Assembly: GCA_963709635.1 (NCBI GenBank)
Contig: CAVPXA010000026.1
Coordinates: 4,843-68,842 of the forward strand
DNA from: an uncultured Thermoleophilia bacterium
Lineage (GTDB): Bacteria; Actinomycetota; Thermoleophilia; UBA2241
Direction of reading: 5' to 3'
Length of the DNA stretch: 64,000 nucleotides
Shown here: positions 5,931 through 44,549 of the stretch, piece by piece
Layout of the letters: each line of letters starts with the position of its first letter
Position numbering within the stretch: the first letter of the stretch is position 1
Made by a program: the position numbers and the translations under genes
The notes under the pieces: model-generated
Told to the model about the DNA's origin: nothing
Seen by the model: the letters and a program-made list of their open reading frames with translations, nothing else
The model's database searches: none

Positions 5931-5934
5931 GGGG

Positions 5935-6714
5935 TCAGAGTTCCTTGCGCCGGAACGACCAGGCGGCGAGGAGAAGGAAGACCACTGCGAGGATGAGCGT
6001 GACCGTGATGGGCTGCGCCAGCGGGACGTCTTCACCCTTGAGCAGCGCTGTGCTGGCCGTGAAGACGCCGGCCGGCGTCCAGTCGCGCAGCGCGGGGAAG
6101 CCGGTGAGCGCGAACAGCACCACGTACACGGCGATGCCGGCGCCGGCCGCCGCCGCCTGCCGGTCCAGGGCGGCGGACAGCCACACCATGAGGCACACGA
6201 ACATCGCCGCCAGCGCCAGCCACACGGCGACCGACTGTACGAACGCCACAATGTGCGACGTGTCGAACAGCGTGATGGTGACGGCCACGCAGAGCGCCGC
6301 ACCGAGTGCGGTGGCGGCCATCACCACGACCAGGTTGGCGATGGCCTTGGACCAGACGAACGACGTGCGCGAGAGCGGTTTGGTGAGCACGAGGATCGCC
6401 GTACCGCTGCGGCGCTCGCCGGCCACCGCGGCGGCCCCCGTGATGATCACTACCAGCAGAGCGAGCTGGAGGAGGTTGCCCATGAACTGCGCGTAGGCGT
6501 CGATCGCGGTCGGGTCGGGATACTTGATGACGACGCCGGGCTGCCGCTCCGCCGTCATCTTGAGGATGGCGGGCGTGACGGCGGCCATGATGGGCGTGGT
6601 GAGTCCCAGGAACACGAGCACGCCGGGCACCACCCAGAGTCGCCAGGTCTTGCGTGTCTCGAGGAACTCCTTGCGTGTGAAGGCGCCGAAGCCGCGGAGC
6701 TTGAGGGCGCTCAC
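5935..6714 (-). CDS. ABC-2 type transporter permease (YxlG-like)
   Basis: KEFLE...W start, GERRSGTAILVLTKPLSR motif, about six TM segments, ends FRRKEL; GTGA overlap with the upstream ATPase. Confidence 0.88.
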   Translation of the reverse strand: MSALKLRGFGAFTRKEFLETRKTWRLWVVPGVLVFLGLTTPIMAAVTPAILKMTAERQPGVVIKYPDPTAIDAYAQFMGNLLQLALLVVIITGAAAVAGERRSGTAILVLTKPLSRTSFVWSKAIANLVVVMAATALGAALCVAVTITLFDTSHIVAFVQSVAVWLALAAMFVCLMVWLSAALDRQAAAAGAGIAVYVVLFALTGFPALRDWTPAGVFTASTALLKGEDVPLAQPITVTLILAVVFLLLAAWSFRRKEL

Positions 6715-8021
6715 CGTCGTGCTCCCTGCACGAGGTCGACGAAGACGTCCTCGAGCGAGACCTCGTCGGCCTCGAACCGCCGGAGCGGCAGGCCGAGGCG
6801 GGCGACCAGCGCGGGCACTTCGCGGTAGGCGACCTCGAGGTCGGTGACTTCGACGACGAGCTCGCGACCGTCGCGACGGACCGCGCCCGCCCACGGCTGG
6901 TCCGCGAGCGCGGCCCCCAGGCCCTGCGGGTCGGACGTCTCGATGACCACGCGCTGTGAGCCTCCGTGCCGCGCGCGGAGCTCGTCGATACCGGCGTGCT
7001 CCACGATCCGGCCGCCGGCCAGCACGGCTACGGTGTCGCAGACGCGCTCGACGTCGGCGAGGATGTGTGTGGAGAAGAAGACGGTGGTGCGGCCGGAGAG
7101 CGCCGCGATCATCTCGAGCACCTCGCGGCGCCCGATCGGGTCTAGCGCGCTGGTCGGCTCGTCGAGCAGCAGCAGGCGCGGCGAGTTGATCAGCGCCTGC
7201 GCGACGCCGAGGCGCTGCTTCATGCCGCGCGAGTAGCCGCCGACCCTGGTGGTCACGCCGCCGAGACCGGCGAGATCCAGCAGCGTCTCGATGCGCTCGT
7301 CGCGCGCGGCGCCGCGGAGGCCGAACAGGCCCGCGGAGAGCTCCAGGTACTCGCGGGCCGTCATCCACTTGTAGAAGCCGGGCACGTCCGGCAGGAAGCC
7401 GATGAACGCGTGCACGGCGTCGGCGTCGCGGGTGGTGTCAAGGCCGAACACGCGCGCCGTGCCTTCGGTCGGGCGCGCCAGCCCGGCCAGGATGCGCAGC
7501 GTGGTGGTCTTGCCGGCGCCGTTGGGCCCGAGGAACCCGAACACGGAGCCCTCCGGCACGACCAGATCGACGCCGTCCAGGGCGCGCGCCTTCTTGAAGT
7601 CCTTGACGAGGCCGGCGATCTCGATGGCGGGGCCGGCAGGTGCCCGCGTCGCCGACTGCGTCCCTTCGGCCCACGGCGCACGCGCTGCTCCCGGCGCGCC
7701 CGCTCCGGCTGCCTCCGGCTGCGCGTACAGCGCCGTCGCCGCCGCGTCCGCCGCCGGCCGGTCTTCGGACTCGTCCTCGGGCCGCTGCTCCACCGCCGGG
7801 GCCGGCACGCGCCCCACGGCGAGGTAGATGATCGACCCGGGGATGGCGAACAGCACGATCAGCAGCGCCCAGAGCCACTTCCGGTCGCCGAGCACGGCGG
7901 GACGCCGGATGAGGTCGGCGAGACAGAAGACGACCAGCGCGACCTCGGCCACCCCGAGCACGATGAGCGCGACGAGTGCCCCGGTGGGGAGCGTCGTCTC
8001 TGCCAGAGGTAGCACGGCCAT
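6711..8021 (-). CDS. ABC transporter ATP-binding protein with N-terminal PLDc_N (YxlE-like) membrane domain
   Basis: N-terminal DLIRR...KWLWALLIVLFAIPGSIIYLAVGR; Walker A GPNGAGKTT, signature YSRGMKQR, Walker B LLLDEPT, H-loop STH. Confidence 0.9.
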   Translation of the reverse strand: MAVLPLAETTLPTGALVALIVLGVAEVALVVFCLADLIRRPAVLGDRKWLWALLIVLFAIPGSIIYLAVGRVPAPAVEQRPEDESEDRPAADAAATALYAQPEAAGAGAPGAARAPWAEGTQSATRAPAGPAIEIAGLVKDFKKARALDGVDLVVPEGSVFGFLGPNGAGKTTTLRILAGLARPTEGTARVFGLDTTRDADAVHAFIGFLPDVPGFYKWMTAREYLELSAGLFGLRGAARDERIETLLDLAGLGGVTTRVGGYSRGMKQRLGVAQALINSPRLLLLDEPTSALDPIGRREVLEMIAALSGRTTVFFSTHILADVERVCDTVAVLAGGRIVEHAGIDELRARHGGSQRVVIETSDPQGLGAALADQPWAGAVRRDGRELVVEVTDLEVAYREVPALVARLGLPLRRFEADEVSLEDVFVDLVQGARR

Positions 8022-28193: not shown

Positions 28194-29899
28194 GCGCAGG
28201 CTCAGCGGGCGGCCGGCGCCGCGTCGGGCTCGCCGGCGTGCTCCTCGCCCTCGTCGTCGTCCTCGCCCTCGTCCTCCGCCTCAAGGGCATCGACTACGGC
28301 CTCCCGTACAGCTTCGTCAACGCCGACGAGAGCACGGTGGTGCCCAAGGCGTTCCATGCGGCGCAGGGTCACCTGAACCCGCAGTTCTTCTTCTACCCTT
28401 CGCTGTACTTCTACCTGGCCGGCGCGCTGTACGTGCTGGCCGCGCCGCTCTGGTGGCTCCTCGGCAACGGGAACCTGCTCGCGCAGACGTCGTTCGTCAC
28501 GGATCCAACGCCGTACTTCCTGCTCGCGCGCCTGCTCTCTGCCGCCATGGGGACGGCCTCCGTGTATCTCGTGTACCGGCTGGGCCGCGACGGCTTCGGC
28601 CGCGCGGCCGGCCTGCTCGGGGCGCTGTTCCTGGCCGTCGCACCGCTGCACGTCGCCTACTCGCACATGGCGGTGACCGACGTGACGGCAGTCGCCATCT
28701 CTCTGCTGGCCCTGGTGCTGCTGCACGGCGCGGCGCGGCGGGGAGGACCGCCGGACGGACTGCGCGGGGAAGCCGCGTCCGCCGCGGGCGCGGAGCGCGC
28801 CGCCGCCCGCCTGCTCGTGTTCGGGGCCGTGACCGCGGGGCTCGCGACGTCCACCAAGTACAACCTGGGCGTGCTGCTGCTTCCCGCCACCGTGGCGGCC
28901 GTGTACGCGTGCCGCGCGGAGGTGGCGCGGCGCGCGGCCGCCGGCGGCCGCGCCGCGCTGCTCTGGCTCCGCGTCCTCGCGGTGCGGGTGTACGTCCCCA
29001 TGGCGGTCGCCTTCGTCGTGGCGTCGCCGTTCGTCGTCCTCGACGCGCCCCACTTCCTGCGCGACTTCCGCCGCCAGAACCAGATCATGGACCGCGGCTG
29101 GCTGGGCTTCGAACACGTCGGCAACGGGTTCTGGTACAACATCACGCCCAATCTCACCGGGGCTATCGGCGTGGTGCTCGTGGTGCTCGGTGCCGCCGGG
29201 CTCGCCTGGGCGTTGTGGCGGCGCACGCGGCTCGACCTCCTGGTGGCGCCCTACATCCTCGTCTACTTCGTCTACAACGGCACCTGGAACGCGCTCATGG
29301 ACCGCTACCTGCTGGTCGTCGTGCCCCTCCTCGTCCTGCTCGCCGCCCGCCTGGGCGTCGACCTCGTGACCGGGGTGACGCCGCGCGCCCGCCGCGTCGT
29401 CCTCCCGCTGGTCGCGGCGGTGCTCGCAGTGGCGGTCGTCTTGCCGCTCGCCGCGTCGCTCAGGTTCGACCGGGAGCTGAGCGGGCGGGACACGCGGGAG
29501 ATCGCGCTGGCGTGGATCCAGCAGCGTATCCCGGCCGGCTCACTCATCGCCGTGGAGAACTACACCGCACCGCTGGTGCTGGAGGACCGGTTGCCTCACT
29601 ACCGCGCGGCGGGCCTGGATCCCGTGACGTACCGCATCCTGAGGCTGAAGCTCCCCGCGCCCGGGACGCCCGACCGCAGGCGTGACCTGGCGTTCCTGCG
29701 CCGTCAGGGGGTGCAGTACGTGATGGTGAGCAGCACCGTGTACGACCGCGTGCGCGCGGCGCCGGAGGTGTACCCAACGGCCGTCGCCTTCTACGAGGCT
29801 CTCGAGCAGCGGGCGGAGCTGGTGGAGGAGTTCCGGCCCGGGCCCGGCGAGCGCGGGCCGGTGCTGCGCCTGTACCGGCTGTCGGCGCCGAGGGACTGA
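28190..29899 (+). CDS. GT-C glycosyltransferase (family 39/ArnT-like)
   Basis: N-terminal TM then NADE acidic motif, FFYPSLY, ARLLSA, SHMAVTD, STKYN, DRYLL; multi-TM. Confidence 0.85.
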
Positions 29900-29939
29900 C
29901 GCCCGCGCCGGACTGACGCCGGCGCCGCAACCACCGCTC

Positions 29940-31016
29940 CTACCGCCGCCTGTCGCGGTCGCTCAGCTCGCCCGGGGCCTCGAAGGCCGCCGCTTCGACC
30001 TCGCCCTCTGTGATCGGCTTGCGGCCGGGGCGGACGATGGCATACGCGACGAACCCCGGCGGGATCGGCAGCCAGAAGTTGATGATGCGGTAGACGAGGA
30101 CGACGGCGACGGCCACCGCGGACGGCACGCCGAAGCTGACGTACAGCGCGATCAGGATGCCCTCGACGGCGCCCAGACCCCCAGGCGTGGGCGCCAGCGT
30201 CCCGATGGAGTAGGCCACGACGTAGCCGACGAGCAGGTGGCTCAGCCCGATGGTGTATCCGAACGCCGCGAACGTGCACCACAGGCAGAGCATGTCGAAG
30301 AACCAGAAGGCGCAGGCGAACAGCAGAGTGGTGCGGAAGGACCCCCGGTGCCTCACCATGCGCCGCATACCGGTGAGCAGGTTGTCGATCCACCCGTCGA
30401 TGTGGTGCTCCTTGACGGCCTCGCGGCGCAGGACGCGATTCACAAGCCGCGCGATCTGGTGGGCGCGGAGGCGAAGCCGGGTGGGATGGTTGTAGAGGTA
30501 CACGCCGTACAGGGTCAGCCACAGGATGAACACGATGAGCGCGATGCCGACCAGGTAGCCGAAGATCGAGTCGCTGCCGCGCGTGATGATCAGGTAGATG
30601 ATCGCCAGCGCGAAGAACAACCACAGCACCACGTAGTTGAAGAACTGCTGCGCGGCGATGGCGACGAAGATGATGCCGTGCGGCACCCGGTGCTTCATCA
30701 GCGCGTTGTAGGTGACGACCCAGCCGCCCACGCCGCCGGCCGAGAGGATGTGGCTCACGGCGAGTCCGCTCAGCGTGATGGCCCACACCTCGCGCAGGCG
30801 CATGCGGATGTCGAGCACGCGCAGGATGTAGCGGAAGAGGTTGGCGTAGCCGGCGAGTGCGGCGACCTCGAGGGCGACGGCGACGCCCAGCAGGAAGTAG
30901 CTCGCGCGCGAGATGTACTGGAGCGTCGCCTGTGTGTCGACCAGCTTGGGCAGCAGGAGGTACAGCGCCAGTACGATGACGGCGAAGACGATGATGCGTA
31001 TGAGGGTCTTCTTGAT
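29940..31016 (-). CDS. Lysylphosphatidylglycerol synthase TM-domain / flippase-like protein (YbhN family); start uncertain
   Basis: PTPGGLGAVEG and VLVYRIINFWLP motifs; multi-TM; the likely start is ATC after GGGGG. Confidence 0.85.
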   Translation of the reverse strand: MKKTLIRIIVFAVIVLALYLLLPKLVDTQATLQYISRASYFLLGVAVALEVAALAGYANLFRYILRVLDIRMRLREVWAITLSGLAVSHILSAGGVGGWVVTYNALMKHRVPHGIIFVAIAAQQFFNYVVLWLFFALAIIYLIITRGSDSIFGYLVGIALIVFILWLTLYGVYLYNHPTRLRLRAHQIARLVNRVLRREAVKEHHIDGWIDNLLTGMRRMVRHRGSFRTTLLFACAFWFFDMLCLWCTFAAFGYTIGLSHLLVGYVVAYSIGTLAPTPGGLGAVEGILIALYVSFGVPSAVAVAVVLVYRIINFWLPIPPGFVAYAIVRPGRKPITEGEVEAAAFEAPGELSDRDRRR

Positions 31017-31156
31017 TGCGTGCCCCCGTGGGTCGGCGGGCCCGCCCGCACCGGCGAGCCCCTTGCGCGGCCACGACAGTACCACAGGGCGGGTGGAGAC
31101 CGACTGAGGTCGCGAGCGCCAGGGGAGGGCACGCGACGCCCGGCGAACGCCTGCGC

Positions 31157-34096: not shown

Positions 34097-34184
34097 GCCG
34101 GTGTGGCGGAACTGGTAGACGCGCTCGACTCAAAATCGGGTGCCCCGAAAGGGCGTGTGGGTTCGAGTCCCACCTCCGGCACCA
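34097..34184 (+). tRNA. tRNA-Leu (anticodon CAA)
   Basis: Acceptor GCCGGTG/CTCCGGC (one mismatch), D-arm GGCGGAACTGGTAGACGC, anticodon stem CTCGA/TCGGG with loop CT-CAA-AA, long variable arm, GGTTCGAGTCC T-arm, encoded CCA. Confidence 0.96.
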
Positions 34185-34345: not shown

Positions 34346-35029
34346 ATGACGGTGCGGCTCTTGGGGCTCAACTGCAGCCCTCGCGACAACAGCAACAGCT
34401 CGATCATGCTCGACACCGCGTTCGAGAAGCTCGACGCCACGTATCCCGGCGAGTGCGAGCACAGCGTCGTCCATCTGCGCGACCTGCACGTCGAACCGTG
34501 CAAGGCCTGCAACGTGTGCGGCAAGAAGAAGGACGGCACCTTCATCCCGTGCGTGCGCGAGAAGGAGGACGACGTCCAGGGCGTGCTCGACGCCATGGTC
34601 GCCGCCGACGGCATCATCGTGGCCACGCCGGTGTACTTCGGGCTGCCGAGCGACCTGTTCAGCAAGTTCATCATGCGCACGCGCCCGCTGCGCCACCAGG
34701 ACTTCAAGCTCGCCAACAAGCCGGTCGCCGTGCTCGCCACGGCGGGGCGCCGCTCCGGCGGGGCCGAGACGGCGATCCTGGCCACCTGGCTGCCGTTCGT
34801 GCGCAACGGCTGCCTGGTGGTCGGCAACGGCGACGGCAGTTGCCAGTTCGGCGCCTTGGGCTGGGCCGGCGGTCGCGGTCACATCCTCAGCGACGAGTGG
34901 GGGCTGGAGCAGGCGTTCCAGACCGCGCAGCGCGTGTTCACGCTGGCCGGCGTCCTCAAGGCCGGCGTCGAGGCCTCGGGCTACCAGAACTACATGCGCT
35001 TCTCGTACTCGCAGGGCACCCGTACCTGA
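34346..35029 (+). CDS. Flavodoxin-fold iron-sulfur flavoprotein (Isf / FMN reductase family)
   Basis: GLNCSPRDNSNS FMN loop, CKACNVC...C, DGIIVATPVYF, RRSGGAET; AGGAG RBS. Confidence 0.88.
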   Translation: MTVRLLGLNCSPRDNSNSSIMLDTAFEKLDATYPGECEHSVVHLRDLHVEPCKACNVCGKKKDGTFIPCVREKEDDVQGVLDAMVAADGIIVATPVYFGLPSDLFSKFIMRTRPLRHQDFKLANKPVAVLATAGRRSGGAETAILATWLPFVRNGCLVVGNGDGSCQFGALGWAGGRGHILSDEWGLEQAFQTAQRVFTLAGVLKAGVEASGYQNYMRFSYSQGTRT

Positions 35030-35059: not shown

Positions 35060-35308
35060 ATGTCCGACGCCGACACCATCCTCGAGTTCATCCGCGAAGA
35101 GGCCGACCTCGAGGACGAGGAGGTCACCGCCGACACGTCGCTCTTCCGCGATCAACTGCTCGACTCCATGAACCTCACGGCGCTCATCGCGTTCCTCGAG
35201 GAGGAGTTCGCCATCAAGGTCAAGCCGATGGACATCGTCTACGAGAACCTCGACACCGTGAATCACATGCTGGCCTACGTCGCGCGCAAGAAGGCGGGCG
35301 ATGCCTGA
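35060..35308 (+). CDS. Acyl carrier protein (DltC-like)
   Basis: 82 aa, acidic; LLDSM phosphopantetheine Ser; LIAFLEEEFAI...ENLDTV. Confidence 0.9.
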   Translation: MSDADTILEFIREEADLEDEEVTADTSLFRDQLLDSMNLTALIAFLEEEFAIKVKPMDIVYENLDTVNHMLAYVARKKAGDA

Positions 35309-35516
35309 GGCGGGCAGCGAGACACGCCCCGCGGCAGCGGAGGGGCCGGCGGAGGGCACGGAGAGCCCGGAGCCGGCCGCGCCCCGCACCAACTGGTTCT
35401 ACTACGGGCTGGGGCTGGGACTGCAGACGTTCCTGTGGTTCCTCCTCTTCATGGCCATCACCGTGGCCGTGCTGGTGGGCAACAAGCTCACCGAGTTCCG
35501 CTACGTCGGCTTCTGA
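35301..35516 (+). CDS. DltX-like small membrane protein (putative acyl shuttle)
   Basis: 71 aa, single TM, C-terminus EFRYVGF resembling the DltX/AlgI F-x-Y-x-x-F tail; start overlaps the ACP 3' end. Confidence 0.75.
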   Translation: MPEAGSETRPAAAEGPAEGTESPEPAAPRTNWFYYGLGLGLQTFLWFLLFMAITVAVLVGNKLTEFRYVGF

Positions 35517-35535: not shown

Positions 35536-37071
35536 ATGACCCCCGAGCCCCTGATGACCGATGCCGTCGCGCGCCTGCGCCGCTGGGCGGCCGAGCGCGC
35601 GGACGAGACGCTCCTGCGCACCCGCGGCCGCGTGTACACCTACGCGGACGTCGAGGCGCGGGCGACGCGGGTCGCGGCGGCCCTCATGGCCGCCGCCGGC
35701 CGCCGCGGCGCCCGCGTCGCTCTGGTGCTCGAAGAGTACGACCAGTTCTTCGTCTGCATGCTCGGCGCGTGGCTCGCCGGCCAGGTGGTCGTGCCGCTCA
35801 ACGTGAGCCTGCCGCAGGCGGACATCGACTGGCTCGTCGGCAAGTCCGCGCCGGACGTGATCGTCGTCCCGGGCGACGAGGCCTGCCCGACCGCCGAGGG
35901 CGGTCCCGTGCGCCTCGTCGTGACGGCGGACGCGGACGGCCTGGTGGACGGCCTGCGCGCGGCCGGCGGCGAAGCCGCCCCGGCCGTCTCCGCGGACCAG
36001 CTCGAGGCCGTCACCGAGGACGAGCAGGCGATGATCATGTTCACGTCCGGCACCACGGGTCTGCCCAAGGGCGTGCAGCAGACGCTGCGTGCCGTCTCCA
36101 GCAATGCCGGGCACGTCTCCCTGACGCTGGGCCTCGACGCCGGCGACCGCGTGTTCATCAACACTCCGCCGTACTTCACCAGCGGCATCTGCCACTTCCT
36201 CACGCTGCTGGCGGCCGGAGGCGGCGTGGCCGGTCAGCTCGGCTTCTACTTCGGCACCGGCCTGCTCGACGAGATGGAGGCCGAGGGCTGCACCGGCTTC
36301 GGCGGCGCGCCGGCCCACCTCGTGCGCGTCGTGGAGCCGATGGAGGAGCCGCGCGAGCACTCCTTTCGCTTCTGGGTGAGCAGCGGCGACCACCTGCCGC
36401 TGCCGGTGATCGAGAAGTTCCGCACGGTGCTGCCGGGTGTGCGTCTGTTCAACATGTACGGCCTCACCGAGGTGAGCGGCCGGCTCTGCATCCTGCCGCC
36501 GGCCGAGCTCGACCTGAAGGTCGGCTCCGTCGGCCGGCCCATCGGCGACATGCGCGTCGTCGCCCGCCGCGGCGACCTCACGGAGGCCGCGCCCGGCGAG
36601 CAGGGCGAGCTGTACGTCGCCGGCTCGCTGCTCATGCTGGGCTACCTGGACGAGCCGCAGATCACGGCCGGGACGCTCACCGCGCACGGCCTCAAGACCG
36701 GCGACTTCGGCAAGGTCGACGAGAGCGGCGCCGTCTGGATCGCCGGCCGCAAGGACGACATCATCAAGCGTGGCGGCGAGAAGGTCAGCATCATCCACGT
36801 GCAGGAGGCGCTGCAGGCGCTCGGCCGCTTCGCCGACGTGGCCGTGGTGGCAGCGCCCGACGACATCCTCGGGCACGTGCCGGTCGCGTTCGTCGTGCCC
36901 AACGAGCCCGAGGGCTTCCGGGCCTCCCGGCTGCTGCGCGAGCTGCGCGGCGTGCTGCCGTCCACCTCCCTGCCCAGCCGCGTGATCGCCGTGGAGCAGA
37001 TCCCGCGCACCGGATCAGGAAAGGCGATCAGGGCCGAGCTGCGCAAGATGCTCGCCGAGGAGCTCGGGTGA
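35536..37071 (+). CDS. Class I adenylate-forming enzyme (acyl-AMP/ACP ligase)
   Basis: MFTSGTTGLPKG, YGLTE, KTGDFG, GRKDDIIKRGGEKV, PRTGSGK. Confidence 0.92.
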   Translation: MTPEPLMTDAVARLRRWAAERADETLLRTRGRVYTYADVEARATRVAAALMAAAGRRGARVALVLEEYDQFFVCMLGAWLAGQVVVPLNVSLPQADIDWLVGKSAPDVIVVPGDEACPTAEGGPVRLVVTADADGLVDGLRAAGGEAAPAVSADQLEAVTEDEQAMIMFTSGTTGLPKGVQQTLRAVSSNAGHVSLTLGLDAGDRVFINTPPYFTSGICHFLTLLAAGGGVAGQLGFYFGTGLLDEMEAEGCTGFGGAPAHLVRVVEPMEEPREHSFRFWVSSGDHLPLPVIEKFRTVLPGVRLFNMYGLTEVSGRLCILPPAELDLKVGSVGRPIGDMRVVARRGDLTEAAPGEQGELYVAGSLLMLGYLDEPQITAGTLTAHGLKTGDFGKVDESGAVWIAGRKDDIIKRGGEKVSIIHVQEALQALGRFADVAVVAAPDDILGHVPVAFVVPNEPEGFRASRLLRELRGVLPSTSLPSRVIAVEQIPRTGSGKAIRAELRKMLAEELG

Positions 37072-37087: not shown

Positions 37088-38149
37088 GTGAGCAGCTTCC
37101 GGAGGGGCCTGCGCAACCGGAACCCACTGGTGCTCGTCGTGGCGCTGGCGCTCCTCGTGCCGGCGCTTCTCGGCATTCAGAGCTGGTTCACCAGCGGCTC
37201 CTGGACGGCCATCGCCGCGGAGCGCTGGGAGCGCAACTCGATCGACGACTACATGTTCGTCTCGTGGACGGTCGGCCACCTCAAGAAGAACCCGCCGGAC
37301 AAGCCGCTGGCCGTGCTGCTCGGCGGGTCGAGCGGCCGCGAGGCCCTCGTCAGCGGCCCCTCGCTGGCCCGCCAGGTCGCCGAGGACGGCGGGCCCGACA
37401 TCGTCGCCTACAACCTCAGCTCGCGCATGCAGCGGTACGCGCAGAGCTGGGCGATCGTCGACAACCTGCCTGACACGCCGACGACGGTGCTGGTCGGCGT
37501 GAACCTGGGCCGCTTCACGACCAGCCCCAAGAGCAACTACAACCAGGTCATCGGCCGCGAACTGCTGCTCAAGAGCGACTCTCTGCGCAGCTGGGTCGTG
37601 GACCAGTCCGGCGAGCACAAGTACTCGTACACGATCCTGCCGGGCATCTTCTCGGCTCTCACCTCCTACGTGCAGCAGAAGGAGAACGCCTGGCTGAACG
37701 GCAGGCAGGCCAAGCCGTACAAGGTGCATGCGTTCGACGGCCGCAAGGCCCTGCCGGAGGCGGAGAAGCAGGAGCTCGTGCAGAAGTGGCTCAAGGAGTA
37801 CTACCCTGCGTTCAAGAAGGTCCACAGGTTCGACGCGGCGATGCTCGATGGTCTCATCGCCGAGGGGCAGCGGCGCGGTCTGGACGTGGTCATCGTCGAG
37901 CTGCCGTGGAACAGGGAGGTCATCGGCGGCGCGTTCGACGACGCGATCGCCGCCTACCAGGCGCCGACACGCGAGATCGCCGAGAAGCACGACGTGCCGT
38001 ACCTGGACTTCAACGAGGCGCTCGGCCTCCCCAGCGAGTACTTCCTCGACCTCTCGCACCTGCGTCCCGAGGGGCGGGCGATCTGGCAGTCCGAGCTCGC
38101 CCGGCAGCTGGCCGGCCTCTACGACGACGGCACCCTGAGGACGAGCTGA
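37088..38149 (+). CDS. DltD/AlgJ-like SGNH-fold acyltransferase, paralog 1
   Basis: N-terminal TM anchor; LLGGSSGRE (catalytic Ser block); C-terminal DLSHL (DxxH). Confidence 0.72.
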   Translation: MSSFRRGLRNRNPLVLVVALALLVPALLGIQSWFTSGSWTAIAAERWERNSIDDYMFVSWTVGHLKKNPPDKPLAVLLGGSSGREALVSGPSLARQVAEDGGPDIVAYNLSSRMQRYAQSWAIVDNLPDTPTTVLVGVNLGRFTTSPKSNYNQVIGRELLLKSDSLRSWVVDQSGEHKYSYTILPGIFSALTSYVQQKENAWLNGRQAKPYKVHAFDGRKALPEAEKQELVQKWLKEYYPAFKKVHRFDAAMLDGLIAEGQRRGLDVVIVELPWNREVIGGAFDDAIAAYQAPTREIAEKHDVPYLDFNEALGLPSEYFLDLSHLRPEGRAIWQSELARQLAGLYDDGTLRTS

Positions 38150-38156
38150 GGCTCTG

Positions 38157-39230
38157 ATGGGCTCGTTCTCGCGCGGGTTCCGCAACCGCAACCCGCTCGT
38201 GCTCGTGGTCGCGGCGCTGTGCCTGGTGCCGGCGCTGCTCGGGTTCCAGTGGCTGTTCACCAGCGGCGCCTGGACGGCTATCCCGCTCGACACCGCGCTG
38301 CGCAACCCGGAGGACTCGTTCACCTACATCTCGTGGACGGTGGGCAAGGCCCGGCAGGACGGACCGCGACATGCCGGGCCTCTACCTCCTCGGCGGCTCG
38401 AGCGCGCGCGAGAGCATCGTGAGCGGCGAGGCGCTCGCCGCCGAGATCCGCGAGGCCGGCGGCCCCGAGGTGGCCGCCTACGACCTCGGCTCGATCAACC
38501 AGAACTTCGCCGAGAGCCTCGCCGTGGTGCAGAGCGCCCCGGACACGCCGGCCTGGCTGCTCGTCGGCATCAACCTCGGCCGCTTCACCGCCACCAAGGA
38601 CGTCAATGCGCAGCAGGCCGAGGGCCGCGAGTTCCTGCTCGAGAGCGAGGCCGTGCACGAGACTTCGTCTCGGCGAAGTGGGACCTCGAGGAGTACGCGT
38701 ACACCATCCTCCCGGGCATCTGGGCGTACATCACCGACTGGACGCGCAAGCACGGCGCCAACCTGCTGGAGGGCGACCCGCCGAGCACCGAGTACAGGTT
38801 GCACCGGTACTCGGAGAAGACGCGGCGCTCGGACGGCCACAAGAAGCGGCTCGTGACGAAGTGGAACGCGAGCCGCAAGCCCGTGTTCGAGAAGAACCGC
38901 GTCGCCAACCTGCAGATGCTGGAGGCGCTGCTCGTGGAGGCCAAGGAGCGCGGCGTCAACGTGGTGCTGCTCGAACTGCCGCTCAACGAGGAGATCGTCG
39001 GGGACAGCTTCGCCAAGTGCCGGCGGCAGTACCAGATCCCCGTCGGCAAGCTGGCGGAGGAGTACGGCTACCCGTACATCGACCTCAACGAGAAGGTCGA
39101 CATCCCCAGCCGTGACTTCCAGGATCTCTCGCATCTCATCGCGCCCGGGCGCGTCGTCTGGCAACATGCACTGGCAGAGGAGCTCGCCCGGCTCCTGAAC
39201 GCTGCGGACTCTGGAGGGAGTGGCGGGTGA
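38157..39230 (+). CDS. DltD/AlgJ-like SGNH-fold acyltransferase, paralog 2 (frameshifts ~38365, ~38660)
   Basis: Shares RNRNPLVLV, LLGGSSARE, GINLGRFT, YTILPGI and DLSHL with paralog 1. Confidence 0.72.
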   Translation: MGSFSRGFRNRNPLVLVVAALCLVPALLGFQWLFTSGAWTAIPLDTALRNPEDSFTYISWTVGKARQDGPRHAGPLPPRRLERAREHRERRGARRRDPRGRRPRGGRLRPRLDQPELRREPRRGAERPGHAGLAARRHQPRPLHRHQGRQCAAGRGPRVPARERGRARDFVSAKWDLEEYAYTILPGIWAYITDWTRKHGANLLEGDPPSTEYRLHRYSEKTRRSDGHKKRLVTKWNASRKPVFEKNRVANLQMLEALLVEAKERGVNVVLLELPLNEEIVGDSFAKCRRQYQIPVGKLAEEYGYPYIDLNEKVDIPSRDFQDLSHLIAPGRVVWQHALAEELARLLNAADSGGSGG

Positions 39231-40478
39231 AGATCTACTTCACGCTGTACCTGATACCGGTGGTGGTCTTCTCGCTGCTGGTGTTCTGGCTGCTGCTGCG
39301 CAAGGACACGCACCGGCTGATCTTCATGCTCGTCGTCAGCGTGGCCGTGCTGGCCGCGCTGCACCCTATCTTCGCGGCCATCGCCCTGGGCCTCGTGCTG
39401 GTCACTCACCAGCTGGTGGAGGCCCAGCGCAAGAAGAAGCTGCGCGGCGCGCGCGTCGTGCTCATCGCCATCATCATCGCGCTGGTCACGCTGGCCATCG
39501 GCAAGTACGGCCAGCGCGGCGCCCTGGCCCTGTGGTGGGCCGAGGGCGACTGGGTCGTCACCCACCTGCTCATGCCGCTCGGCATCAGCTACTTCGTGTT
39601 CCGCATGCTCCAGTACGTGTTCGACTGCATGCGCGGCGTGATCCAGGAGAACAGCCTGCTGCGCCTGGCCGCGTTCATGATGTGGATCCCCGACGTTCCC
39701 GGCCGGCCCGCTCGAGACCTACCAGGGCTTCTACGAGAAGCGCACCATCGGGTTCGACCGCCAGGAGTTCTACTACGGCCTGCGCCGCATCGCCCTCGGC
39801 TACTTCAAGAAGGTCTTCGTCGTCGACTTCCTGTTCGCGATCTTCTTCGGCAAGATCGTCAGCACCGTCGGCAAGACGGCCTTCGGCCCGGACGACGTGA
39901 GCTGGTGGTGGCCGCTCGCCTACTGCATCATCGTGTTCGTCCGCGCGTACTTCGACCTCTCCGCGTACACCGACCTCGCCATCGGCTTCTCGCGCCTGTT
40001 CGGGTTCCGCATCATGGAGAACTTCCACTTCCCGTTCTGGCAGAAGAACCTCAGCGACTTCTGGCACAGCTGGCACATCTCGCTGAGCACCTGGTGCCGC
40101 AACAACGTGTACTTCCCGGTGTTCGGCCTCACGCGCAAGCCGTGGCTCGGCCTGTACGCGAGCATGCTGGTCATGGGCCTGTGGCACGCGGTGGACCTCA
40201 ACTGGCTGGCCTGGGGCCTCTACCACGGCACCGGTCTGGTGATCCTGTCGCGCTGGGAGCGGTGGAAGAAGAAGCGCAGGAAGGCGCGCAAGAAGGCCGG
40301 CCTGCCGCCGGCGGCGAGCTACGAGAAGTACACCAGGTGGCTCGGCTACCCGGTGACGTTCCTCTACGTGGCGCTCGGCTACGGGTTCGTCGCCACGCCG
40401 AACTTCGAGCAGGCGCTCCGCGTGCTCTACAACGTCTTCCGCCTGCCGCTGGCGTGGCTGTTCGGCGTGCTGTTCTGA
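39227..40478 (+). CDS. MBOAT family O-acyltransferase (DltB/AlgI-like; frameshift ~39690)
   Basis: PLGISYFVFR, AGP, KKVFVVD, FDLSAYTDLAIG, ENFHFP, DFWHSWHISLSTW, catalytic GLWH. Confidence 0.93.
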
Positions 40479-40576: not shown

Positions 40577-41704
40577 GTGAGCCTGCGTGACATCCAGGAG
40601 AGGACCGGCCGGCGCGCGTTCAGCCGCGGCTTCCACCAGCGGAGCCCGCTGGTGCTGGCCGCGGCCGCCCTCATCACGCTGCTCGCGCTCGTCGTCCTGC
40701 AGGGCACGCTGTTCGAGGGCGGCCTGACCGTCGTCGACGAGGGCCGCCTGCTGCGCATCACCCACGACGACTACGTGCACGTCTCCGTCAAGGTCCAGGA
40801 GCTGAAGAAGGACCCGCCGAAGATCCGCACCGTCTACCTCTTCGGCGGCTCCGGCACCATGGAGTGCTTCGTCAGTGAGGCGTCGCTGGCCGCGGCCATC
40901 GCCCGCGACGCCGGCCAGCCGGTCCGGGTGGTCAGCCTGGCCGCGCACCAGGAGAGCATGGGCATGACCCTCGCCCTCGTCGACAACCTGCCCGAGGGTC
41001 CGGCCACGCTCGCCATCGGCCTCGCGCCCATCCGCGTCACCGGCAAGCCCTCGCGCGACGCGACGCTCCTCAGTGGCCACGAGCTGCTCGTGCGCAGCCC
41101 GCGGCTCGAGGAGCTCGCGCCCAGGTACTTCGGCCACGCGGCGCCCACCACCGGCGCGATCCCCGGCATCTTCGACTACGTCGGCTCGTACTTGCGCGAG
41201 CGCGCCTCGAGCGAGGCGCCCTGGGGAACCCGGATCATCTACGAGACGCACTACTACCCGTGGGGCGCCAAGGGGCACACGCAGCTCGGCAAGCGCCGCA
41301 ACGTGCTCTACGTGCTCGCCAAGGACGTGACCCTGTACCGCAAGTACGGCGACTACAACTTCGCCATGCTCGAGGAGGTCCTCAAGCTGGCCGGCGAGCG
41401 CGGGTTCGACGTGGTGTTCTACGACCAGCCGCTCAACGCGTCGGCGGCCGGCCCCACCTGGAGCGGCGTGGTGCCGGCTTACCGCAAGCGTGCGTCCGAG
41501 CTGGCCGAGCGCTACGGCGTGCCGTACGTGCACATCGAGCGCAACGTCGAGCTCACCGACCACGACTTCGCCGACCTCTTCCACCTGCTCGCGCCGGCGC
41601 GCCTCAAGTGGCAGCCCGAGATGGCGCGCCAGATCGCCGCGACCCTGCCGCCGCCCGACGAGCCGGTGGCGCAGGCCGTGCCCGTGGCCGTCACGCCGCG
41701 CTGA
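40577..41704 (+). CDS. DltD/AlgJ-like SGNH-fold acyltransferase, paralog 3
   Basis: AFSRGFHQRSPLVL + TM; YLFGGSGTME; VDNLP; IPGIF; DFADLFHL. Confidence 0.7.
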   Translation: MSLRDIQERTGRRAFSRGFHQRSPLVLAAAALITLLALVVLQGTLFEGGLTVVDEGRLLRITHDDYVHVSVKVQELKKDPPKIRTVYLFGGSGTMECFVSEASLAAAIARDAGQPVRVVSLAAHQESMGMTLALVDNLPEGPATLAIGLAPIRVTGKPSRDATLLSGHELLVRSPRLEELAPRYFGHAAPTTGAIPGIFDYVGSYLRERASSEAPWGTRIIYETHYYPWGAKGHTQLGKRRNVLYVLAKDVTLYRKYGDYNFAMLEEVLKLAGERGFDVVFYDQPLNASAAGPTWSGVVPAYRKRASELAERYGVPYVHIERNVELTDHDFADLFHLLAPARLKWQPEMARQIAATLPPPDEPVAQAVPVAVTPR

Positions 41705-41708
41705 CGCC

Positions 41709-42051
41709 TCATCCTTCCGGCAGCGCTCCAAGCAGCGGCGTGAGCCTCTCCAGCACCGCTGTCACCACCTCGTGAGGCGCCGCGCAGAGCAGCCGCACCC
41801 CGCCCGACCGGACGTCCACAGACGTGACGCGATCCGCAAGGACCACCCCCTGCACGGGGAACCCGGGAGGCAGCTCGACGCCAAAGGGCCGGACCTTGGT
41901 CTCCTGCTCGATGGGACACACTGAGACGAGCCCCGTCCTGGCGCTGTAGGCGGCCGGCGACAGTACCAGGGCCGGCCGCCTTTCGGAGGAGGCAGTCCCT
42001 GACGGATACCACGTCGCCTCGCCCGGGCGTCCACTTCGACCACAGCGTCAC
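41709..42051 (-). CDS. mazF: MazF/PemK-family toxin-like protein (frameshift ~42000; possibly fused to mazE)
   Basis: WTPGRGDVV, RPALVLSPAAY, GLVSVCPI, GVVLADRVTSVD. Confidence 0.75.
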
Positions 42052-42231
42052 CGGCAAGCCGGCGAGCAGGAACTCGAGTGTGGGCGACTGAGGAAGCGGC
42101 TCGATCACGATGCTGCGATGGTCGAGTCGGAGGTCGACCGGTGAACGGTCGTGCAGTCCGATGCTCCTCGCGAGGCGCTGAGGGATCCTGATCGCCAGAC
42201 TGTTGCCCCAGCGCTGGACCGTATACGGCAT
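42048..42231 (-). CDS. mazE: AbrB/MazE-family antitoxin (C-terminally short)
   Basis: VQRWGNSLAIRIP...IVIEP...TLEFLLAG; GAGGA RBS. Confidence 0.85.
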
Positions 42232-42456: not shown

Positions 42457-43438
42457 ATGGAGGGTGGAGACATCGAACGGGGAGCGGGCTCCCCGGATGC
42501 CTGGGTCACGGCACAGTCGCGCGACCCGGAGGCCGGTGTCACGCGGCGGCAGTTCCTGGTCGGCGGCGGCGTGCTCGTGGCGGCCGCCGCCGTGCTCGGC
42601 GCCGTGGGCTGGCGGTCGTGGACGGTGCGCGGCTACTGGTACCGCTTCACCGGCGCCTACGGGCCCTCCGGCACGCCGCCCCCTTCGTATCCGGTCGTGT
42701 ACCGCAAGGGCACGTTCCCCTCACCCCGGCTGGCCGAGCCTGCCGAGTACGAGGTCGCCTACCCGCCGGACGTGGATCCGGAGAACACGGAACTGGTGAC
42801 GGCCACCCCGGTGTTGATCTGCCTGCCCGGGAGGGCCCGGTCTGCAGAGGCGGTGCTGGAGGGAGGCATGCACTTCGGGGACTTCGTCGCCGACGCGGTG
42901 CAGCGGCGCGCCGTCACGCCGTTCATCACGGTCGCCGTGCGGGCCGGCGACACGTACTGGCACGAGCGGAGCAGCGGCGTCGACGCCATGGCCGTGCTGC
43001 TCGACGAGTTCATCCCGTTCTTGCGTGACGACCTGGGGCTCGGAGGCACGCTGGGCATCATGGGGTGGTCGATGGGCGGCTACGGGGCGCTGCGGGCTGC
43101 CGAATCGCGCCCGCAGGAGTTCCGCGCCGTGTGCGCGGTCAGCGCAGCCCTTTGGCGCTCCTACGATGAGGGAGTCGGCGATGCGTTCGACGACGCCGCG
43201 GACTACGCCGCGGACGACGTCTACGCGCACGCGGAGAGGTTGCGCGGACGTCGCGGTGAGGGTCGACTGCGGGGAGCAGGACCCCTTCTACGCCGCCGAC
43301 AAGGCGTTCGCCGAGGCGCTGCCGCGGCCGCCGGCGGGCGGGTTCGAGCCCGGCGGCCACAACGACGCCTACTGGATGCGCGTGGCGCCGGCCGAGATCG
43401 ACTGGATGGCGAGCGAGCTCGGCCGGACGGCTCCGTGA
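42457..43438 (+). CDS. Tat-signal alpha/beta-hydrolase esterase (frameshift ~43245)
   Basis: TRRQFL twin-arginine motif; GWSMGG nucleophile elbow; DCGEQDPF and GGHN C-terminal motifs. Confidence 0.85.
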
Positions 43439-43478
43439 GGACCACCGGGCCGCTCCGGATGCGCGCGCCGGTGAGAGC

Positions 43479-44549
43479 CTAGGCGCGCGGCACGAAGCGC
43501 TGCGCGTCCCAGGCGCCCTCGGAGAGGCGCCTCGTCACCGCCGCCGCGAGCAGAGCGCCGGCCTCGGCGTCGTCCGGCTGCATGACCTCGAACGCCGAGT
43601 GCATGTTGCGCACCGGGAGGCTGAACGAGAGCGTCGCGGCGTTGCCGGCGGCCATGAGCTCCTCGGCGTCGGTGGAGGTGTTGCCGGGCATCGCCTTGAC
43701 CTGCACCGGGATGCCCTCGTCCTTGGCCACCTGGATGGCGAGGTCGGTGAGGGCGAGGTTGCCGGCGGCGCCGCGGTGGATCACCGGGCCGGCGCCGAGC
43801 TTGACCTCGCCGCCGAGCTTCTTGGCGTCCATGCCCGGGTCGTCGCTGGCGAAGTCGACGTCGACGACCATGATCACGTCCGGCTGCCACTTGATCGCCA
43901 TGGCCTTGGCGCCCATGAAGGTGGTCTCCTCGTGCACCGTGAGCAGCGCCGTGAGGTCGGCGGCCGCAGGGGCGGAGGCGTAGTGCTCGAGCGCGCGGAG
44001 GCAGACGTAGACGCCGGCGCGGTTGTCGAAGGCCGGCGAGGCGTAGCGGCCGCCGGCCAGCTGGAGGAAGTTCGGCGGGAACGTGATCGGATCGCCGATC
44101 TGGACCAGATCCAGCGCCTGCTCACGGGTGGAGCAGCCGATGTCGAGCCACTGGTCGCTGAGGTCCGGGGCCTTGGCGCGCTCGTCTTTGGTCATCTTGT
44201 GGGAGGGCTTGCGGCCGACCACGCCGTCCACGGGGCCCTTGGAGGTCTGGACGATGAGGTTGCGGCCGGGGAGGAGCTGCGGGTCCACGCCGCCGATCTT
44301 GTCGAACGAGACGAAGCCCTTCTCGTCGACGTAGGTGACGATGAGGCCGATCTGGTCCGCGTGGGCGGTGACGACGACGTGCGGCGCGCCCTGGCCCTTG
44401 ACCGTGCCCCAGACGTTGCCCAGCGGGTCGCCCTCGGGCGCCGACAGCGCGGAGAGGCGCGCGCGCACGCGGTCGAGCACGGGAGCTTCGAACCCGGTGG
44501 GGGCGGGGGCGGCGCAGAGGTCGCGCAGCAGGTCGAGGTCGGTGGCCAT
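43479..44549 (-). CDS. M42 family metallo-aminopeptidase
   Basis: APTGFE, AHADQIG, FDNRAG, HEE, VDVD, STDA, RNMHS. Confidence 0.9.
   Translation of the reverse strand: MATDLDLLRDLCAAPAPTGFEAPVLDRVRARLSALSAPEGDPLGNVWGTVKGQGAPHVVVTAHADQIGLIVTYVDEKGFVSFDKIGGVDPQLLPGRNLIVQTSKGPVDGVVGRKPSHKMTKDERAKAPDLSDQWLDIGCSTREQALDLVQIGDPITFPPNFLQLAGGRYASPAFDNRAGVYVCLRALEHYASAPAAADLTALLTVHEETTFMGAKAMAIKWQPDVIMVVDVDFASDDPGMDAKKLGGEVKLGAGPVIHRGAAGNLALTDLAIQVAKDEGIPVQVKAMPGNTSTDAEELMAAGNAATLSFSLPVRNMHSAFEVMQPDDAEAGALLAAAVTRRLSEGAWDAQRFVPRA

Follow-up and report, generated by a model that had tools for sequence, protein, structure and literature searches.

We analysed a 64,000-nt stretch of the genome of an uncultured Thermoleophilia bacterium (contig CAVPXA010000026.1 of assembly GCA_963709635.1, positions 4,843 to 68,842 of the forward strand), referred to below as the window. 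It contains a micro-open reading frame (micro-ORF) encoding a candidate acyl-shuttle microprotein that ends in the hexapeptide FRYVGF. The source genome is a metagenome-assembled genome (MAG) of 2.66 Mb in 37 contigs and is 64.6% complete. On the plus strand, the genes are arranged in the order FMN-reductase-like gene, carrier, micro-ORF, ligase, SGNH paralogues 1 and 2, MBOAT, and SGNH paralogue 3. The features of the cluster from the carrier onward are as follows.

35060..35308, plus strand: 82-aa phosphopantetheine carrier, DltC/ACP-like (Pfam PP-binding 4.3e-10; serine motif LLDSMN)
35301..35516, plus strand: microprotein gene, 71 codons, ATG start, TGA stop
35496..35513, plus strand: F-R-Y-V-G-F hexapeptide of the FxYxxF acyl-shuttle type; Tyr68 codon TAC at 35502-35504
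35536..37071, plus strand: 511-aa AMP-forming (ANL) ligase (Pfam AMP-binding 1.9e-63 and AMP-binding_C)
37088..38149, plus strand: SGNH paralogue 1, membrane-anchored, DltD-like (AlphaFold model with a predicted local distance difference test score (pLDDT) of 93.4 and a predicted template-modelling score (pTM) of 0.92)
38157..39230, plus strand: SGNH paralogue 2, DltD-like, frame-broken here; catalytic-Ser segment in another frame, 38371-38856
39227..40478, plus strand: DltB-type MBOAT without a C-terminal FxYxxF; both conserved His present, in WHISLS and GLWH (within VMGLWH)
40577..41704, plus strand: SGNH paralogue 3, DltD-like; shares 31% identity with paralogue 1; relatives also have it downstream of their MBOAT

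Sequence and coding evidence of the micro-ORF

The initial annotation had described a 71-aa ORF with a single transmembrane segment, ending in FRYVGF and with its Tyr codon at 35502-35504, and its position, length, ending, and Tyr codon were confirmed by the ORF list and by reading the DNA. The start codon of the micro-ORF overlaps the stop codon of the preceding carrier gene (ATGCCTGA). The tail is encoded by ttc cgc tac gtc ggc ttc tga, and the C-terminus of the microprotein is GNKLTEFRYVGF, LTEFRYVGF. The protein consists of three parts. The N-terminal 30 residues are variable and acidic, with many Pro and Ala; they are followed by a hydrophobic helix, W32-G60 (35394-35480), and then by the invariant tail LTEFRYVGF. 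By inspection, W32-G60 is the single hydrophobic stretch (29 residues) and is conserved across the family, and this stretch together with the length of 71 aa marks the product as a small single-pass membrane protein. Arg precedes the helix and Lys/Arg follow it, so that the positive-inside rule gives an ambiguous topology; the orientation is thus one that we infer.

The window contains 709 frames of 40 aa or more that are bounded by stop codons. Only one of them, the frame flanked by the carrier and ligase genes, ends in F.Y..F, whereas residue frequencies predict about 0.0006. Across 27 loci, which comprise 23 distinct DNA versions, exactly one open frame per locus has this ending. Across these versions, the ratio of nonsynonymous to synonymous polymorphism (pN/pS) over the last 45 codons was 0.36, and the last nine codons showed synonymous changes with no amino-acid change. 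The Arg codon of the tail, for example, is CGC, AGA, CGG, or AGG depending on the locus. Contigs from the RNA libraries X19 and X20 were 88-99% alike on parts of the cluster; their cover of the micro-ORF was very low, and such matches are not in themselves a sign of transcription.

Two other readings of the C-terminus were rejected. A beta-signal of an outer membrane protein has a different Tyr spacing, and the tail here follows a single helix in an actinobacterium. A precursor of a ribosomally synthesized and post-translationally modified peptide (RiPP) does not fit because the conserved part includes the membrane helix and no maturation enzymes are found among the cluster genes.

Conservation and distribution of the family

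A word-indexed search detected 321 database homologues of the microprotein at E<=0.01. All of the best 120 of these (59-94% identical) end in TEFRYVGF, and in this set the helix is almost invariant and the N-terminal ~25 residues vary freely. A profile hidden Markov model (HMM) search of 1.84 billion cluster representatives gave 57 matches at E<=0.001, of which 52 end in F-x-Y-x-x-[F/Y] (46 FRYVGF, 3 FRYVRF, and one each of FHYVGY, FRYVGY, and FRYMRF). Two of the remaining five matched up to the helix and have tails that look frame-shifted, and in the other three, all long proteins, the match is confined to the helix or the N-terminal part. The family alignment of 48 sequences shows no variation at Q42, W46, F66, Y68, or V69; the Tyr and the first Phe of the motif thus do not vary freely. 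The last Phe is replaced by Tyr in 2 of the 52 motif-bearing representatives, and the family ranges from 36 to 113 aa in length. The motif is therefore conserved in homologous clusters, which the initial annotation had proposed as a check of its reading. The family is annotated only as 'hypothetical protein', or its gene is not called.

Of 36 genomes from the genus, 32 encode the micro-ORF. The four genomes without it also lack an orthologous MBOAT, their best matches being paralogues of 31-33% identity. It was absent from all 24 genomes of other families of the class. When the phylum was searched with the family alignment (the source genome and 400 further genomes), 5 of 401 genomes matched. 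The real ones were the source genome and one genus-mate; the three others were weak matches (E 3e-4 to 8e-4) of the helix or N-terminal part only, located within ORFs of 291-613 aa, and we treated them as noise. A scan of genome collections yielded 14 true loci, labelled uncultured Thermoleophilia (12) or uncultured Actinomycetes (2). Because the relatives are labelled Thermoleophilia, the system lies outside the Firmicutes. We rejected four matches, in Aquidulcibacter, Acidimicrobiales, Phycisphaerales, and Planctomycetota, which are confined to 18-22 residues of the variable N-terminus. A further homologue, P0074 (73% identical), is labelled as a Krumholzibacteria MAG, which could reflect mis-binning or transfer outside Actinomycetota.

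The gene arrangement around the micro-ORF is also conserved. All 12 loci examined in the genus have a carrier, the microprotein, a ligase, 1-5 SGNH-like paralogues, and an MBOAT, with a slightly different order in one. The number of DltD-like SGNH paralogues per cluster (loci L021-L032) ranges from one (L025, L027, and L028) to five (L026). In L030, one SGNH paralogue lies upstream of the carrier and the MBOAT directly follows the ligase. We also scanned metagenome loci of the 80 closest of 178 relatives, a set that lies apart from the most distant members of the family (46-60 aa). The carrier was upstream of the micro-ORF in all 75 loci with at least 250 nt available, the ligase was downstream in all 70 loci with at least 300 nt of downstream sequence, starting 16-91 nt past the micro-ORF stop codon, and the MBOAT was downstream in all 17 loci long enough to tell. 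In one genome the micro-ORF is present twice, each time within a complete cluster (L022 and L031). Because the homologues share an invariant tail, the changes in the tail are synonymous only, and the position in the operon is fixed, we conclude that the micro-ORF is a genuine gene, that its product is a single-pass membrane microprotein, and that purifying selection acts on this protein.

A tail-less MBOAT and tailed paralogues in the same genome

The frame of the window MBOAT ends in LPLAWLFGVLF, with the stop codon at 40478. The initial annotation had noted that it ends in WLFGVLF with no shuttle motif, and this holds beyond the window: none of 36 distinct intact MBOAT relatives (414-417 aa) and none of 17 metagenome MBOAT tails has an FxYxxF end. 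The intact 416-aa MBOAT of locus L033, whose cluster DNA is 93% identical to that of the window, matches one NCBIfam model only, TIGR04091 DltB (E 4.9e-49, 8-372 of 380), at 167.5 bits, which is below the equivalog cut-off of 375. When the MBOAT profile was compared with PDB sequences, only DltB was found, 6bug (7e-37) and 8jem (1.1e-36), and both His motifs aligned. Because TIGR04091 is the sole family matched, is matched end to end yet below its cut-off, and only DltB is found in the PDB, we regard the protein as a DltB homologue and not as an equivalog. The AlphaFold model of the MBOAT alone, built with 36 close relatives, was poor (pLDDT 64, pTM 0.51), and the DltB assignment therefore rests on sequence.

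The source genome encodes three further MBOAT paralogues, 31-32% identical, each beside a frame ending in ...AEFLYFKF, ...AAFLYFKF, or ...SPFLYVQF.

Contig C19, minus strand, L144:2242-4095 and about 5153-6718, and contig C12, L145:1514-2926: other MBOAT paralogues, tails FLYFKF, FLYFKF, and FLYVQF

For one paralogue, the tail and a Pfam MBOAT domain (2.9e-36) share a frame, and the domain ends ~94 residues before the C-terminus. In the other two, the frame of the tail differs from that of the domain match, which suggests indels. As read from these sequences, a fused form and the putative split form of the shuttle coexist in one genome. The MBOAT of the cluster is tail-less while its paralogues in the same genome have a tail; thus, something else must supply the shuttle function.

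Carrier, ligase, and SGNH paralogues

The carrier matches both ACP and DltC models of NCBIfam, all below their cut-offs. The best NCBIfam models for the ligase are of the fatty-acyl-CoA-ligase type, all far under their cut-offs, and DltA is not among the best 25. Against the PDB, FadD5 (3e-45), the gramicidin synthetase A domain, and FadD13 lead, and DltA follows in about 34th place (4.9e-28). By sequence, the ligase is thus a generic ANL enzyme that is not DltA-like, and it is the presumed loader of the carrier. Because it is nearer to fatty-acyl- and aryl-CoA ligases and to A domains of non-ribosomal peptide synthetases (NRPS) than to DltA, the transferred group is probably not D-alanine. 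After its TSGTTG loop the ligase reads PPYFTSG and not the FD-type A4 motif of amino-acid-activating domains, a difference that may hint at a non-amino-acid substrate.

The model of SGNH paralogue 1 was compared with known structures. All of the top 10 Foldseek matches were DltD structures (3bma, 6o93, 7dxm, and 6pfx among them; E 5e-6 to 8e-5), with TM-scores of only 0.42-0.47, and GDSL/SGNH esterases ranked next. VIA-align gave Z 16.0 to TesA 1ivn (root-mean-square deviation 2.6 A over 166 residues) and Z 14.4 to PatB. G80, S81, G137, D321, and H324 are invariant in an alignment of 58 paralogues that includes paralogue 3, and N275 is at least 90% conserved. The alignment and the model indicate that the paralogues keep an SGNH fold with Ser, Gly, Asn, and Asp-x-x-His. 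At their N-terminus, an Arg-rich segment precedes a helix, consistent with a type II anchor that would place the domain outside the membrane.

A probable tyrosine shuttle for the MBOAT

DltX is a membrane microprotein, and passages of PMC12148441 describe how the invariant Tyr of its C-terminal FXYXXF motif receives D-Ala from DltC via DltB and hands it to DltD. In other bacterial MBOATs, according to the same passages, the motif is fused to the enzyme on two extra helices, and those pathways have neither a carrier protein nor a DltX-like microprotein; the free-standing acyl-shuttle microprotein belongs, in the picture drawn there, to the Dlt pathway of Firmicutes only. In both DltX and PatA, the invariant Tyr of FxYxxF has been demonstrated to be the acyl carrier, and the PatA tail of N. 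gonorrhoeae is FIYANF (passages of PMC12148441). The DltX tail is given as FLYFGF in an excerpt of PMC11035591 and as FIYNEF in one of PMC13653941, and these excerpts describe the tail as docking in DltB and DltD. The background on which the initial annotation had relied, a shuttle motif in DltX and a fused tail on other MBOATs, is borne out by the passages of PMC12148441.

By analogy, we consider it likely that the microprotein is a functional analogue of DltX, that is, a tyrosine shuttle for a tail-less DltB-type MBOAT in a Dlt-like pathway of Thermoleophilia, in which the acyl group is probably not D-alanine. Tyr68 most likely carries the acyl group as the corresponding residue does in DltX. 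The initial annotation had suggested a split, DltX-type architecture outside the dlt operon of Firmicutes; the conservation, the tail-less DltB-like MBOAT, and the Thermoleophilia host all support this suggestion.

The pathway would proceed in three steps. Judging from the domain families, the ANL ligase would activate a carboxylic acid and attach it to the 82-aa carrier through the phosphopantetheine arm. The second step is modelled on DltB and DltX: on the cytoplasmic side, the MBOAT would accept the acyl group from the carrier and pass it, by way of its conserved His, to Tyr68. For this, the FRYVGF tail would be extracytoplasmic and the helix of the microprotein would pack against the MBOAT, an arrangement to which the complex prediction described below lends weak support. 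Finally, the acyl-Tyr tail would swing into the active site of a DltD-like SGNH protein, from whose catalytic Ser the acyl group would be transferred to an envelope polymer or lipid acceptor.

It is possible, and we put it forward tentatively, that the cluster represents not D-alanylation but an undescribed envelope-acylation system of Actinomycetota, in which a fatty-acyl/aryl-type ligase and a carrier supply a non-amino-acid acyl group to a DltB-type MBOAT, a separate EFRYVGF microprotein relays it, and 1-5 DltD-like transferases deliver it to different acceptors. Such a system would suggest that MBOATs fed by a carrier protein generally use a detached shuttle and those fed by acyl-CoA a fused one.

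Predicted binding of the microprotein to the MBOAT

The initial annotation had proposed a multimer prediction of the peptide, the MBOAT, and each SGNH paralogue. We predicted the two-chain complex of the MBOAT and the microprotein of the close relative L033, with one alignment for each chain; for these two chains, the proposed test came out weakly positive. The median interaction prediction score from aligned errors (ipSAE) was 0.43 (0.43, 0.45, and 0.16 in the individual runs), and the best of the three controls scored 0.00. The runs agreed in at least 79% of contacts, and the pLDDT of the partner was at least 58. The mark set for ipSAE was reached by 116 of 157 solved complexes and by 2 of 215 mismatched pairs. 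At ipSAE <=0.60, only 18 of the 157 solved complexes reached the mark, together with both of the mismatches that passed.

Observations that weigh against a DltX-like shuttle

Several results weigh against the DltX-like role. The DltX family model PF12459, which scored over its cut-off in two control genomes, matches neither the microprotein (E<=0.1) nor anything in the genome (E<=10), and it matches 1 of 20 distant family members, at only E=0.082. No NCBIfam family matches the microprotein. The microprotein profile retrieved noise from the PDB (helices of complex I ND4, E 0.26 or worse) and no DltX chain. When the microprotein family was compared by hhalign with the fused tail region of the own-genome MBOAT paralogue, E was 0.17 and the probability 0.4%. 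Because the microprotein resembles neither PF12459 nor the fused tail, it need not share descent with either form of the shuttle, and the FRYVGF motif could be convergent with the known forms. The ligase is not DltA-like, so the pathway differs from known D-alanylation, and the complex score lies in the weak band. In addition, the reading frames of the MBOAT and of one SGNH gene are disrupted in the window; if these indels were real, the system would be broken in this strain. In favour of the role, among look-alikes of the microprotein in the ESM Atlas, a 45-aa cluster at rank 5 (score 0.87) has PF12459 on 31% of its members, which we take as a lead only.

Alternative explanations

The microprotein might instead be a structural or assembly subunit of an MBOAT-SGNH complex whose tail serves as a docking peptide and not as a covalent acyl carrier; its helix might, for instance, stabilise or tether the other proteins. 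Such a role would suit a family in which the whole helix is conserved, with Q42 and W46 invariant, and the complex prediction gave a signal, albeit a weak one, for binding to the MBOAT. A regulatory role of DltX and DltD helices has also been raised as a possibility in an excerpt of PMC11035591. However, the exact FxYxxF spacing and the invariant Tyr are the acyl-carrying feature of DltX and PatA (passages of PMC12148441), and an MBOAT that lacks the tail found on its paralogues must obtain that function from elsewhere. We regard a purely structural subunit as unlikely.

Another possibility is that the cluster is decaying in the source genome, the frame-shifts being real and the microprotein gene a leftover of a family that is functional elsewhere. 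In the MBOAT, a run of C at ~39685-39688 is one letter too long and divides the gene over two frames, and SGNH paralogue 2 changes frame at about 38362-38369 and returns at about 38662-38663; relative to the closest relative, these are insertions of 1-2 bases. The extra letters lie in or beside short runs, and contigs of other sequencing runs omit exactly these letters. The letter at 39688 is omitted by one contig of X1 (depth 3.99 of 3.99), two of X2 (15 of 68.8), and three of X19 (13.4 of 13.4), and the letters at 38363, 38658, and 38660 are omitted by one X2 contig each. These contigs are 88-99% alike and may come from relatives; hence, an assembly error in the source strain is not proven. 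The MBOATs of all 12 related loci are in one frame. Breaks occur in other cluster genes of related MAGs (the ligase in L021 and L028, and SGNH genes in L029), which, like the two MBOAT paralogues with displaced tails, fits assembly indel noise. In the window itself, the microprotein, the carrier, the ligase, and two SGNH genes are intact. The frame-shifts in the MBOAT and in SGNH paralogue 2 are thus most likely assembly indels, and decay of the cluster is quite improbable.

High-GC DNA is rich in long spurious frames, as the 709 frames of the window illustrate, but an untranslated chance frame is very hard to reconcile with purifying selection at the protein level, with 321 homologues whose tail is invariant in the best 120, with a fixed position and a start coupled to the carrier stop, and with ~0.0006 chance tails expected, and for practical purposes we consider it refuted.

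Genes surrounding the cluster

Further genes and features near the cluster are listed below.

34097-34184, plus strand: tRNA-Leu (CAA) gene, just upstream of the flavoprotein gene
34358..35029, plus strand: FMN-reductase-like flavoprotein gene (Pfam FMN_red 3.7e-22), directly upstream of the carrier
41512-42231, minus strand: open frame whose first ~50 residues match the MazE/AbrB antitoxin fold (Pfam 8.7e-09)
42457-43482: TAT-signal (twin-arginine translocation) alpha/beta-hydrolase gene, separated from SGNH paralogue 3 by the MazE/AbrB-type frame

In tblastn searches, a gene for the flavoprotein was found just upstream of the carrier in related loci with enough upstream DNA, among the matches listed, and the FMN-reductase-like gene may belong to the operon. 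The flavoprotein carries a Cys-rich CKACNVCG stretch. The MazE/AbrB-type frame may be an insertion because the hydrolase closely follows the SGNH gene in several relatives. Farther upstream, at 28217-31133, lie a PMT_2-type glycosyltransferase (plus strand) and an LPG_synthase_TM family protein (minus strand), both of which recur near the cluster in relatives. The surroundings of the cluster are an envelope-modification neighbourhood.

Significance

The principle of the shuttle is already known from DltX, and the microprotein family itself is unnamed. A full-text literature search found no published description of the family, although Schultz et al. 2023 may mention it. A DltX-like role of the microprotein would extend the split design of the shuttle to a phylum other than Firmicutes, with a ligase unlike the D-alanine ligase. 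Fused and split shuttles in one genome offer a natural comparison for the evolution of MBOAT-SGNH relays. The cluster also provides a testable handle on modification of the cell envelope in abundant uncultured actinobacteria of soil and sediment, and the microprotein adds a family for annotation.

Comparison with known systems

The microprotein resembles DltX (PF12459) in being a small, single-helix membrane protein with a C-terminal F-x-Y-x-x-F and an invariant Tyr, and in being encoded with a carrier, an adenylating ligase, a tail-less DltB-type MBOAT, and one or more DltD-like SGNH proteins. Unlike DltX, it is longer (71 aa) and has a variable, acidic N-terminal extension. The gene order also differs from dltXABCD of Firmicutes, which serves D-alanylation of teichoic acid, being carrier, X, ligase, SGNH gene(s), MBOAT, and SGNH gene. 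Compared with the Firmicutes dlt system, the ligase is of a fatty-acyl or generic ANL type, there are 1-5 DltD-like paralogues instead of one, and the host belongs to Thermoleophilia (Actinomycetota).

With the fused tails of PatA/AlgI-type MBOATs, the microprotein shares the logic of the hexapeptide, and the tail of one paralogue in its own genome and the microprotein both end in E-F-x-Y-x-x-F. In contrast to PatA/AlgI-type enzymes, the tail forms a polypeptide of its own, and the MBOAT, ~415 aa long, has no extension; the donor would be a dedicated carrier protein, whereas theirs is presumably acyl-CoA. The SGNH paralogues are like DltD in having an N-terminal membrane anchor and an SGNH fold, with DltD crystal structures as their top structural matches. 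Unlike DltD, they have no match to a DltD model of Pfam or NCBIfam, VIA-align places generic SGNH esterases such as TesA (Z 16.0) above DltD, and they occur in 1-5 copies per cluster.

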